From: a virus
IMG/VR virus record: IMGVR_UViG_2718218475_000005
Coordinates: 5,418 to 69,417 of that record
DNA length: 64,000 nt
Reading direction: 5' to 3' (one strand)
The notes beneath the pieces are model-generated. The model saw nothing but the letters and a program-made list of their open reading frames with translations, had not been told where the DNA came from and did no database searches. Below are positions 49,719 to 51,250 of this stretch, piece after piece. The translations under genes and the position numbers were made by a program. Within the stretch, counting starts at the first letter, position 1; each line of letters starts with the position of its first letter.

Positions 49719-49744
49719 GCTAACATCTCCTAATCGTATGTATC

Positions 49745-49772
49745 AAAAACCCCCGCCAATAAGCGAGAACTA
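49745..49772 (-). terminator. Terminator at end of tRNA/ncRNA array
   Basis: ttctcgc-ttattg-gcggggg then TTTTTG. Confidence 0.65.
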
Positions 49773-49812
49773 GTTTGAAGATTGTCCGTTTTGGAGCCGC
49801 GGACGTGTTTAA

Positions 49813-49959
49813 TGTGTTTGGTAGGGATTTGCACCCTACATGTTGGATATATTCAGCATCTTTACCAATTACTTACAAGTGTCGCGACGCCCTTGTAAAA
49901 CCAACAGTCACACCCTGAAACAGGGCCGCCACAGCGTCTACCTATTCCGCCACAAGCAC
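49813..49959 (-). ncRNA. tRNA-Leu-like RNA with ~90-nt structured insert replacing anticodon/variable arms
   Basis: Acceptor gtgcttg/caaacac, D arm TGGCGGAATAGGTAGACGC, T arm gtaggg-tgcaaat-ccctac; no 7-nt anticodon loop. Confidence 0.6.
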
Positions 49960-50003
49960 ACGTTATACGAATGGTCTATCGTGGACGCTAACATTGTATA
50001 ACT

Positions 50004-50065
50004 ATATCGCCGGTAGGCCTCGAACCTACATCCCATTGTGGCTTGCCAATTAGCCCACAGCGATA
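50004..50065 (-). ncRNA. tRNA-like RNA lacking an anticodon arm
   Basis: Acceptor tatcgct/ggcgata, D arm ggc-taattggcaa-gcc, T arm gtagg-ttcgagg-cctac; only ~10 nt between D and T arms. Confidence 0.65.
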
Positions 50066-50150
50066 CTCGCATTTAACGGCCGACATTAAACACGAAGACT
50101 AATGCCGGCGGCAGAGAGGAGCGCATCACCCCTTATAAATCCGCCGGCTA

Positions 50151-50222
50151 CACAGATAGCTGGATTTGAACCAACATAGACGGTTTTGGAGACCGCCATC
50201 TTGCCAATTAGATCATATCTGC
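50151..50222 (-). tRNA. tRNA-Trp(CCA)
   Basis: gcggt-ctCCAaa-accgt anticodon arm, ttcaaat T loop, gcagata/tatctgt acceptor; no encoded CCA end. Confidence 0.92.
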
Positions 50223-50291
50223 TTAATAGACGGGCCATCATATCAACTTAATCAAGGAGGCAACACAAACTGTACATCTGTGCCCGTCTAA

Positions 50292-50364
50292 CGTAGCCTG
50301 CTGGGCTCGAACCAACGACAACCTGATTAACAGTCAGGTGCTCTACCAACTGAGCTAAAGCTAC
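50292..50364 (-). tRNA. tRNA-Asn(GTT)
   Basis: cctga-ctGTTaa-tcagg, agctcagttggtagagc D arm, ttcgagc T loop. Confidence 0.95.
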
Positions 50365-50557
50365 AACTAGTAAGTGGACTTGTTGTTTCCTCGTTGGCCG
50401 ACTAGAAATTAACAATTGCGCATTTGCGACTTGTCCGCCCACTTACTAATTTGAACAATGTTCCCCGTACCAATCGTAGGAACTCTGGCACCTTCGATTA
50501 GGTAAGATGCACGTCTTCTGCCTGCAGAGCTGTTCAGTACCCTGCAGTACACGGTTA

Positions 50558-50640
50558 TGGCGGTGGTAGGAATCGAACCTACTCACCCAATGGGATCGGT
50601 TTTACAGACCGACACAGCTCTCCATCTCTGACGCACCGCC
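50558..50640 (-). tRNA. tRNA-Tyr(GTA)
   Basis: gtcggt-ctGTAaa-accgat, long variable arm cccattggg, gtagg-ttcgatt-cctac. Confidence 0.88.
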
Positions 50641-50680
50641 GTGATGATAGGCTAACAAGCTGGGGTGGCTTACCTATCTA

Positions 50681-50768
50681 TCGATAATACTAATTTACTC
50701 CCCTTTTTGACTAATTTACCGGAATCAACACGGAAACTTGTCGGAATTTACTCGGAATTTTGTCGGAG
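50681..50768 (-). promoter_or_regulatory. Late promoter B: five TTCCG boxes at exact 11-bp period + -10-like TAAATT
   Basis: CGGA(+) at 50720, 50731, 50742, 50753, 50764, directly after the arpU stop. Confidence 0.75.
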
Positions 50769-50773
50769 TAAAT

Positions 50774-51250
50774 TCAGTCTTCGTCGTAGTGAGCAATAAT
50801 CTCTGGCTCATACTTTTTAACGATCAGGTCTTCCACACCATCCGGATATATCTCAGCGAACATTAACTGAGCTTGTTTCAAATACTTATTAAACGTTTTG
50901 TCGGAGATATTCAGGCTAATCATGCACTTAGTTTTCGAATACCGTTTAACATAGAGCAACATTAATAGCTCTGAATATTTTTCTGTTTCTTCATCAATCG
51001 TGATAGCTTCAATGACCTTGACAACTAAATTAGCCATAAAATCATCATTAGCTTTACTAACTTGCTTGTCTTCAATACGGTTGCCATAGCTAGGACTTTT
51101 AGGCATTCCGTCCATTACTGGGCTTTGCAGGTTGAAATTAACCCTGCGAGCTCGTAGCCGCCATTTCCAATAGCCCTTTAGCACCCGTTCCGCATTAGCA
51201 ATTGTTCGTTCTTCATCCACGTCCTTAAAAATGCTCTCCATCACTGCCAC
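50774..51250 (-). CDS. arpU: ArpU-family late transcriptional activator
   Basis: LQSPVMDGMPKS, Y...LLMLLY...LNIS.KTF...L..A...FAE. Confidence 0.9.
   Translation of the reverse strand: MAVMESIFKDVDEERTIANAERVLKGYWKWRLRARRVNFNLQSPVMDGMPKSPSYGNRIEDKQVSKANDDFMANLVVKVIEAITIDEETEKYSELLMLLYVKRYSKTKCMISLNISDKTFNKYLKQAQLMFAEIYPDGVEDLIVKKYEPEIIAHYDED

Follow-up and report, generated by a model that had tools for sequence, protein, structure and literature searches.

RESULTS

Noncanonical tRNA shapes in an array free of open reading frames

The window analyzed here, a 64,000-nucleotide (nt) stretch of viral DNA, is a piece of an 84-kb IMG/VR provirus record (IMGVR_UViG_2718218475_000005) whose closest cultured relatives are the Lactobacillus plantarum phages phig1e, Sha1, and phiJL-1. 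On the minus strand, positions 50683 to 49743 form an array of about 14 RNA modules that is free of open reading frames (ORFs) and that includes, beside three canonical tRNAs, a 60-nt tRNA-like RNA lacking the anticodon arm and a 147-nt RNA with the shell of a tRNA-Leu. An earlier note on this DNA had proposed that the tRNAs of the region serve as processing signals releasing a set of small RNAs or decoys, and its description of about 900 nt without a credible ORF was accurate: the ORFs inside the array encode only 41 to 64 amino acids (aa), and each overlaps tRNAs or hairpins. The 5′ and 3′ ends of each module pair with each other, and the linkers between modules are 0 to 3 nt long, or about 14 nt in one case inside a 190-nt spacer. 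Five modules are tRNA shaped:

50005 to 50064, minus strand: anticodon-armless tRNA-like RNA, 60 nt, read from the sequence
49813 to 49959, minus strand: tRNA-Leu-shaped shell, 147 nt, from the sequence and family comparison
50558 to 50640, minus strand: tRNA-Tyr(GUA), class II, no encoded CCA (ARAGORN; RF00005, 40.7 bits)
50291 to 50365, minus strand: tRNA-Asn(GUU), no encoded CCA (ARAGORN; RF00005, 68.3 bits)
50151 to 50222, minus strand: tRNA-Trp(CCA), no encoded CCA (ARAGORN; RF00005, 59.8 bits)

A canonical tRNA was defined as a cloverleaf with a 7-nt anticodon loop recognized by ARAGORN or by the Rfam model RF00005 (gathering score, 29). By this definition, Tyr, Asn, and Trp were the only canonical tRNAs of the array (40.7 to 68.3 bits), located on the minus strand where they had been placed before; tRNA-Tyr recurs in 7 related loci. 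The other two units returned neither an RF00005 match at an E value of ≤10 nor an ARAGORN call, and in the 60-nt RNA 9 nt replace the anticodon arm, so canonical identity was rejected for both. They are real tRNA-like RNAs, as the earlier note had suspected, that no tool reports as tRNAs.

Searches of Rfam likewise returned the three tRNAs as the only matches in the window, also at the permissive cutoff of E ≤ 10. None of the armless tRNA, shell, inserts, and hairpins examined reached a curated threshold of Rfam 15, and 11 loci with other insert types gave at permissive thresholds only tRNAs, plus sub-threshold matches to rli62 and istR outside the inserts. The feature is therefore absent from Rfam 15, in line with the claim that its RNAs are uncharacterized, and it is unannotated in the Sha1, phiJL-1, phig1e, and Lenus records inspected, the last of which annotates only a neighboring tRNA-Gly.

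Repeated loss of the anticodon arm

The armless RNA consists of a 7-bp acceptor stem, U8, G9, a 4-bp D stem with a GG loop, a 9-nt linker that replaces the anticodon arm and variable loop, and a T arm, GTAGG-TTCGAGG-CCTAC (GGTTCGAGGCC), followed by discriminator A and then T. It was found in 102 of 124 related loci (cited below by handles such as L038 where they must be told apart). Among its 46 distinct variants, 97.8% of stem cells are paired, 3 pairs have changed on both sides, and the GG of the D loop and the TTCGA of the T loop are invariant. Stronger support for the armless architecture than these variant statistics comes from a second family of 58 nt (ACGTGCA...TGCACGT; L038, L031, L074, and L133), which is unrelated in sequence, has an identical architecture, and sits in arrays without the first family. 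In addition, the place of the anticodon arm is taken in Levilactobacillus prophages by a GNRA hairpin of four pairs or by a perfectly palindromic hairpin of 10 bp. Because of the unrelated second family and these arm replacements, loss of decoding with retention of the upper half of the tRNA reads as an event that has occurred repeatedly and been maintained. In the Levilactobacillus yiduensis locus L129 (about 1880 to 1960 of the locus, minus strand), a tRNA-shaped unit has, instead of its anticodon arm, a perfect palindrome of 24 nt, AAACTGGTCGAATTCGACCAGTTT, with an EcoRI site inside.

A tRNA-Leu-shaped shell with exchangeable inserts

The 147-nt unit has the acceptor stem GTGCTTG/CAAaCAC, a Leu-type D arm that is 2 bases away from that of host tRNA-Leu, a 6-bp T stem, and discriminator A, and an insert of about 95 nt (49934 to 49840) replaces its anticodon and variable arms. 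Its T loop, TGCAAAT, has a G where U55 is almost universal; the T loops of host tRNA-Leu are canonical. An exact search with the 3′ half, by which true diversity is underestimated, found the shell in more than 119 IMG/VR contigs. It also occurs in six stretches of five species genomes (Levilactobacillus yiduensis, L. lindianensis, L. mulengensis, Lactiplantibacillus fabifermentans, and a Lactobacillus metagenome-assembled genome) and in the cultured phages Sha1, phiJL-1, Lenus, and "Hujiaoplasma phage zrk29-2." Among the matches listed, there are at least 62 distinct shell sequences of 84 to 214 nt, with modest variation in the 5′ half, which lies outside the search pattern. Their inserts form at least 22 clusters at 75% similarity within one common frame, so that the Leu-type acceptor, D, and T frame is constant and the central arms are swapped for phage-specific inserts. 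A link between insert type and the neighboring activator or terminase family was rejected; the clusters assort freely.

Other identities for the 147-nt RNA were considered and discarded. In an intron-bearing tRNA, an anticodon stem-loop should be restored after removal of an insert at 37/38 or in the loop, and ARAGORN run with introns of 0 to 300 nt found no such tRNA in 62 shell variants. A transfer-messenger RNA (tmRNA) has a tRNA-like domain with G3:U70, a tag reading frame, and pseudoknots; here ARAGORN reported no tmRNA, pair 3:70 is G:C, a true D arm is present, and a length of 147 nt is too short for a tmRNA. YrlA, a bacterial Y RNA (RF02553), carries a tRNA-like module on a Ro-binding stem made of its 5′ and 3′ ends. 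It gave no Rfam match at E ≤ 10, and the ends of the 147-nt RNA form the acceptor stem itself.

Inserts were compared by anchoring on motifs, which replaced a poor RNAalifold alignment of the window insert with that of Lenus. The common 108-nt type shows compensatory changes (UA to CG or GC, and GC to UG) in a hairpin and in a helix that closes it off. The type found in the window is rarer, being represented by three close copies, the virulent phage Lenus, an L. lindianensis prophage, and a Lactiplantibacillus fabifermentans prophage. Its loop, (G)GCGUCGCGAC(A), is conserved in four lineages (the window copy, GCGTCGCGAC, lies at 49891 to 49880), and the stem that carries the loop is wholly different in each lineage and always paired: TTTACAAG/CTTGTAAG, TTGGT/ACTGA, TCTGTGGG/CCCACGGG, and TATATCAGT/GCTGATATG. 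Beside the T stem, the insert domain is closed by GTTGG/CCAAC, or by CTGG/CCAG in the Levilactobacillus lineage. An upstream GYGAC could pair with the insert loop, and a palindrome within the loop, GUCGCGAC, could drive RNA dimerization. As a dispersed DNA site, GTCGCGAC was rejected on its single occurrence in the window.

Several individual phages add to this picture. In the virulent or large phages L008, L091, and L106, the shell lies amid tRNA arrays and not in a late leader. The larger shell-bearing arrays of L091 and L106 also contain odd tRNAs (L091:2028-2144, L091:3239-3329, and L106:4617-4704), namely, a 117-nt unit that has a long extra arm and whose "anticodon" loop measures 3 nt, a tRNA-Ile(UAU) whose variable arm is of class II, and another with a 5-nt anticodon loop. 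Lenus (L008) has a second giant tRNA-like unit, with T arm GTGGGTTCGATACCCAC, upstream at about 1320 to 1490, and its region 1599 to 1738, which overlaps the 3′ end of the shell and extends downstream, gave sub-threshold matches to rli62 (38.3 bits against a gathering score of 83; E value of 1.4e-5 in a local search) and Bacilli-1 (17.5 bits). The linear phiJL-1 record (L006, AY236756; shell at 1609 to 1719) ends 3 nt past the shell discriminator, and a packaging cut site may lie between the shell and the next terminator module. "Hujiaoplasma phage zrk29-2" (L005, OP650937, marked UNVERIFIED_ORG) carries the armless tRNA at 98% identity, together with the 108-nt shell type characteristic of Lactobacillus plantarum phages; the Tenericutes host assignment of this record looks doubtful.

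ROOL RNA between the two core RNAs

The space between the armless tRNA and the shell is a slot of variable content, occupied in related loci by 56 distinct spacers, of which the two main short types share a closing stem, GTTAT(R)...(Y)ATAAC, and have different interiors. In eight related loci (L065, L011, L079, L100, L105, L014, L035, and L106), this interval is about 700 to 800 nt long and contains ROOL RNA (RF03087), with scores of 119.7 to 144 bits compared to a gathering score of 99.1. In L011, L065, L079, and L100, ROOL starts directly 3′ of the armless tRNA and lies about 240 nt 5′ of the shell, which fits tRNA shapes framing other RNAs. The window, in which the Rfam models detected neither ROOL nor GOLLD, is a ROOL-less version of the locus, with a 41-nt hairpin where ROOL starts elsewhere. 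ROOL and GOLLD reside in tRNA islands of phages and prophages and their function is unknown (PMC5737381, PMC12286853, PMC12990946); the locus described here is probably the Lactobacillaceae-phage counterpart of these islands. The cited ROOL/GOLLD papers make no mention of armless tRNAs or insert-bearing tRNA shells.

The order of modules in L065 (L065:1616-2148) is armless tRNA, ROOL, a noncanonical tRNA-Tyr-like unit, spacer, shell, and terminator. The tRNA-Tyr-like unit (about 2149 to 2233) has the anticodon loop CUGUAAA and a D loop without GG, and it is called by neither ARAGORN nor Rfam.

Position between the late activator and the packaging genes

The array is bounded by the following features:

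50774 to 51250, minus strand: ORF for an ArpU/RinA-type activator, phrog_248, 158 aa, upstream of the array
50684 to 50772, minus strand: late-promoter-like region, from a promoter scan and direct repeats with a 22-nt period
49743 to 49778, minus strand: intrinsic terminator with a G+C stem and U run, from fold and sequence
49718 to 49515, minus strand: 67-aa ORF, the first late gene, closely 3′ of the terminator

The promoter-like region sits immediately 3′ of the activator ORF and contains TTCCG-type boxes with about 11-nt phasing, followed by TAGTCA (−35-like), 18 nt, and TATTAT (−10, 50689 to 50684). This promoter module is 94 to 96% identical in 14 related loci and 90% identical in a second array of the same record. 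Behind the 67-aa ORF lie genes for a DUF6275 protein, the small and large terminase subunits (TerS and TerL), and an SPP1-type portal. The position between activator and packaging genes is kept in 98 of 129 related loci, and it holds across two activator families and two terminase types (Terminase_2-type and P27/HNH-type).

The terminator, left unlisted by a simple promoter/terminator scan, retains its stem in 32 variants. Neither the promoter scan nor inspection of the sequence revealed a credible promoter between it (49743 to 49778) and the first late ORF (49718). Because the two lie so close together and lack such a promoter, late-gene expression seems to depend on terminator read-through. 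The earlier note had taken the array for the first late transcript, which is a reasonable reading of this arrangement. Lineages L133 and L128 have the same layout of a terminator and then a late gene, with unrelated sequences.

The second array, which is shorter and lies outside the window (L002:1400-1900; G000:C1:71630-72130), consists of promoter, leader hairpin, tRNA-Asn, 64-nt hairpin, tRNA-Trp, 45-nt hairpin, and terminator. It is 97% identical to the window array and shares the promoter core, with CCGAAC/CCGGAC boxes instead of TTCCG, which suggests tandem prophages whose late activators have different specificities.

Closed hairpins and the 190-nt spacer

The remaining modules are hairpins and one large spacer, whose folds were evaluated by comparing the minimum-energy fold with dinucleotide shuffles (z scores):

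50643 to 50682, minus strand: leader hairpin, 40 nt, ends 2 nt before tRNA-Tyr (minimum free energy, −12.8 kcal/mol; z, −4.41)
50366 to 50557, minus strand: 190-nt spacer with two closed domains, 50554 to 50465 (z, −2.83) and 50450 to 50366 (z, −4.37)
50227 to 50290, minus strand: 64-nt closed hairpin with a 9-bp closing stem (z, −2.44)
50104 to 50148, minus strand: 45-nt closed hairpin with an 8-bp outer and a 7-bp inner stem (gccggcgg/ccgccggc) (z, −3.27)
50066 to 50096, minus strand: 13-bp hairpin between the 45-nt hairpin and the armless tRNA (z, −4.26)
49962 to 50002, minus strand: 41-nt hairpin (gttatac/gtataac) in the slot between the armless tRNA and the shell (z, −2.27)
49784 to 49804, minus strand: small hairpin 3′ of the shell, from the fold; a "tail" module in about half of related loci

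The closed hairpins described previously are present at the positions claimed for them, their folds beat dinucleotide shuffles (z, −2.3 to −4.4), and they do begin 1 to 2 nt past a discriminator base. Every element on that list was recovered, but the list had missed two, the 13-bp hairpin (50096 to 50066) and the leader hairpin (50682 to 50643), the latter common to phig1e at 97% identity.

Three of the hairpins (64 nt, 45 nt, and 13 bp) recur in 29 to 49 related loci. The 64-nt hairpin, which has GCCUCCUU in the loop of its minimum-energy fold, is paired in 96.4% of cells over 17 distinct variants, most of which retain a CCUCCU loop; an anti-Shine-Dalgarno theme was rejected, CTCC and CCTCC not being enriched on the transcribed strand. 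In 18 variants, the stem cells of the 45-nt hairpin are 100% paired, with GC>AU among the changes, and 99.1% of the cells of the 13-bp hairpin are paired; taken together, 99.6% of their stem cells pair, and of the types of change seen, 13 preserve pairing and 1 disrupts it. The 45-nt hairpin occurs behind three different tRNAs, Trp, Asn, and Ile, and its phig1e homologue, behind tRNA-Ile, has a doubly compensated stem (GCCAGCGG/CCGCTGGC). In three host genomes, matches to the array were confined to its tRNA parts and none of the hairpins was present, so an origin from host tRNA operons was rejected.

In L084 (2766 to 3227; also in L073 and L095), the 64-nt hairpin between tRNA-Asn and tRNA-Trp gives way to an insert of 462 nt. 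Two small ORFs converge within this insert, the first encoding 55 aa behind a GGAGG ribosome-binding site and the second about 69 aa, so slots between tRNAs are also used by protein-coding cassettes.

DISCUSSION

A probable prophage RNA cassette with non-decoding tRNA shapes at its core

The feature is real, structured, and widespread in phages of the Lactiplantibacillus/Levilactobacillus group. It is probably a "tRNA island" RNA cassette of prophages, placed in the leader of the late (packaging) operon, whose non-decoding tRNA shapes are the conserved core and the likely products. Transcription would start at an activator-dependent promoter just 3′ of the ArpU/RinA-type gene, pass through about 14 independently folding modules, and for the most part end at the intrinsic terminator abutting the first late gene.

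How the transcript might be cut can be judged from the ends of its units. RNase P requires only the acceptor and T-arm half of a tRNA with its elbow, and RNase Z prefers U after the cut. All five tRNA-shaped units of the window are without an encoded CCA and have T after the discriminator, as do 9 of 9 shell, 24 of 24 armless, and 42 of 50 canonical tRNA contexts in related loci. The RNase Z of Lactobacillales cuts CCA-less precursors right after the discriminator, as mapped in one case (PMC8549757), and on the basis of this enzyme, the missing CCA, and the T after the discriminator, we infer cutting at every tRNA-shaped unit. RNase P would cut 5′ of each unit and RNase Z after each discriminator, with CCA then added. 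The predicted products are tRNA-Tyr, tRNA-Asn, and tRNA-Trp, together with the 60-nt armless tRNA and the insert-bearing Leu shell, both of which would be stable, CCA tailed, and non-decoding. Hairpins released between the tRNA shapes may be co-products or small RNAs, or they may act as stabilizing insulators; being paired at both ends, they should resist exonucleases.

The proposal that tRNAs are signals for the release of small RNAs agrees with the strand-specific chain of structured modules, the CCA-less units followed by T, and the start of ROOL directly 3′ of the armless tRNA. What is constant across phages, however, is the tRNA shapes, while hairpins and true tRNAs come and go, and for this reason the tRNA shapes are probably products in their own right and not mere cut signals. 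The shell could then be a natural carrier that supplies processing, folding, and stability, with the exchangeable insert supplying specificity. Candidate actions, presumably in trans, are the binding or titration of proteins that recognize the upper half of a tRNA, or of defense proteins; a role of the array as decoys against anticodon nucleases is speculation. It is conceivable, if on balance doubtful, that late leaders of Firmicute siphophages contain a modular RNA toolkit. In such a toolkit, anticodon-less tRNAs would accompany a Leu-shaped carrier, possibly leucylated or at least CCA tailed and with a unique G55 T loop, whose inserts (at least 22 types) would target host tRNA-binding or defense proteins in trans, as aptamers or decoys; the toolkit would be an alternative or companion to the ROOL nanocage RNA.

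Several observations weigh against a cassette of conserved, functional RNAs. Covariation is shallow, with most relatives more than 90% identical, and shuffle controls reflect this. For the armless tRNA, 3 to 40 of 500 shuffles reach the observed values, depending on the measure, which is weak, and a C:A mismatch recurs in the T stem of 8 of its 46 variants. The control for the 64-nt hairpin is also weak (11 to 492 of 500 shuffles, by measure), and that for the 45-nt and 13-bp hairpins together is not significant (136 of 500), owing to shallow divergence. The check on covariation called for earlier thus returned almost only pair-preserving hairpin changes in 29 to 49 contigs, but with controls that were weak or not significant. 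Invariance of the shell 3′ half is partly an ascertainment artifact of the exact search, and the window copy has a C:A mismatch in its acceptor stem (49817), where most relatives have G. By itself, the window insert folds no better than shuffles (z, −1.56), so its structure is argued from comparative evidence. The 190-nt spacer was correctly described as structured, with two separately closed domains, but folding energy is all that backs it: no relative was found in INPHARED, the 129 fetched loci, IMG/VR (two exact probes), or three host genomes, and it is unconserved and unique to the phage of the window. Metatranscriptomes yielded two contig sets, which hold related versions only and may contain DNA. 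Single-cell RNA-seq yielded 7 partial reads from one run, of which 3 fall on a shell carrying another insert, and none from a second run.

Alternative explanations

Much of the locus could be accommodated by a cis-acting leader, in which tRNA shapes define the 5′ end of the late mRNA and leader and terminator together set read-through by attenuation or antitermination. Such a leader fits a terminator that closely precedes the first late gene, the two being separated by no credible promoter. The shell usually forms the final module ahead of the terminator, and L133 and L128 preserve the design (terminator-like hairpin, ribosome-binding site, and ATG) in different sequences; t-elements provide a precedent (PMC1920247). 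This explanation is nonetheless unlikely, as it does not account for 22 exchangeable structured inserts or for a conserved armless tRNA with other modules downstream of it, no alternative antiterminator pairing was found, and the shell of L008, L091, and L106 is away from the late leader. The proposal closest to the earlier note, that the payload consists of hairpins acting as small RNAs or decoys and that tRNAs and tRNA-like units are cut signals only, is decidedly improbable given that the minimal arrays of many phages are only armless tRNA, one hairpin, and shell, and that hairpins occur in 29 to 49 loci versus 102 for tRNA shapes. CUCC motifs show no enrichment, no complementarity to a target was identified, and the largest spacer is unique to the window phage. 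In favor of hairpins as payload are their closure at both ends 1 to 2 nt from tRNA ends, their pair-preserving changes and phage specificity, the occurrence of the 45-nt hairpin behind Trp, Asn, and Ile, and the CCUCCU loop retained in most variants of the 64-nt hairpin.

Two further explanations were considered. In one, the tRNA-like sequences are recombination linkers or a pac/cos region with incidental RNA folds; in its favor are the coincidence of mosaic boundaries with module ends, the constant proximity to terminase genes, and the end of the phiJL-1 record 3 nt past the shell discriminator, a possible packaging cut. Such a DNA-level role is very improbable, because changes that keep G-U pairs and wholly different stems around a conserved loop point to selection on RNA, the array accompanies both Terminase_2-type and P27/HNH-type modules, and the palindrome GTCGCGAC occurs once in the window. 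Decay, with the armless tRNA and 147-nt element as leftovers of deletion and insertion in a tRNA cluster, could explain the acceptor mismatch of the window shell, the C:A mismatches in some armless variants, and the many odd tRNAs in phage tRNA arrays. It is hardly credible for an armless architecture present in at least two unrelated families and kept in more than 100 contigs, with invariant tertiary-contact bases, structured and covarying inserts, and a shell that persists across two genera and in virulent phages.

Relationship to known systems and significance

Elements of the proposed cassette have parallels elsewhere. T4 species 1 and 2 RNAs (rnaC and rnaD) are stable non-tRNA RNAs from the tRNA cluster of T4, a phage of Escherichia coli, that are co-transcribed with the tRNAs and matured by tRNA-processing enzymes. 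They have no sequence relation to the array, and to our knowledge their function is still unknown and they are not a family with a constant shell and many inserts. In the TMERs of murine gammaherpesvirus 68, a non-aminoacylated viral tRNA-like unit is followed by hairpins released by RNase Z, the same layout of tRNA and then closed hairpin; these use eukaryotic RNA polymerase III and the microRNA pathway, and the likeness is one of analogy only. Engineered "tRNA scaffolds" have the anticodon arm swapped for an RNA of interest. The shell resembles a class II tRNA-Leu or such a scaffold in its Leu-type acceptor, D arm, and discriminator A and in the insert that takes the place of the anticodon and variable arms. 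Unlike them, it lacks an anticodon loop, has UGCAAAU (G55) as its T loop, and is natural, with inserts swapped between phages.

Plant mitochondrial t-elements are non-decoding tRNA-like signals for RNase P and RNase Z within longer transcripts (Forner 2007, PMC1920247), and the freed t-element RNA can be stable and can gain a non-encoded C or CCA (PMC1920247). The armless tRNA and shell both possess the acceptor stem and T arm of a t-element-like signal. T-elements differ in being organellar, in flanking mRNAs, and in having no exchangeable insert, and the array is known here from sequence. With ROOL/GOLLD loci (Weinberg 2017, PMC5737381; Kretsch 2025, PMC12286853), the array shares a phage-borne, ORF-free, tRNA-adjacent niche; by comparison, the non-tRNA modules in the window are small (31 to 147 nt) and tRNA shaped or simple hairpins.

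Of the bacterial RNAs to which no function has been assigned, ROOL and GOLLD rank among the most striking, and their setting was previously described just as phage borne and tRNA adjacent. For ROOL this setting is organized, with a fixed position between the late activator and packaging genes and a constant core of armless tRNA and shell, and ROOL, hairpins, or small genes can fill the space between these two core RNAs. Provided that the shells undergo processing and are stable, they would constitute a natural "tRNA scaffold" and a new class of phage small RNAs. Lactiplantibacillus plantarum lysogens and phages are easy to grow, and the locus may give a handle on the role of ROOL.

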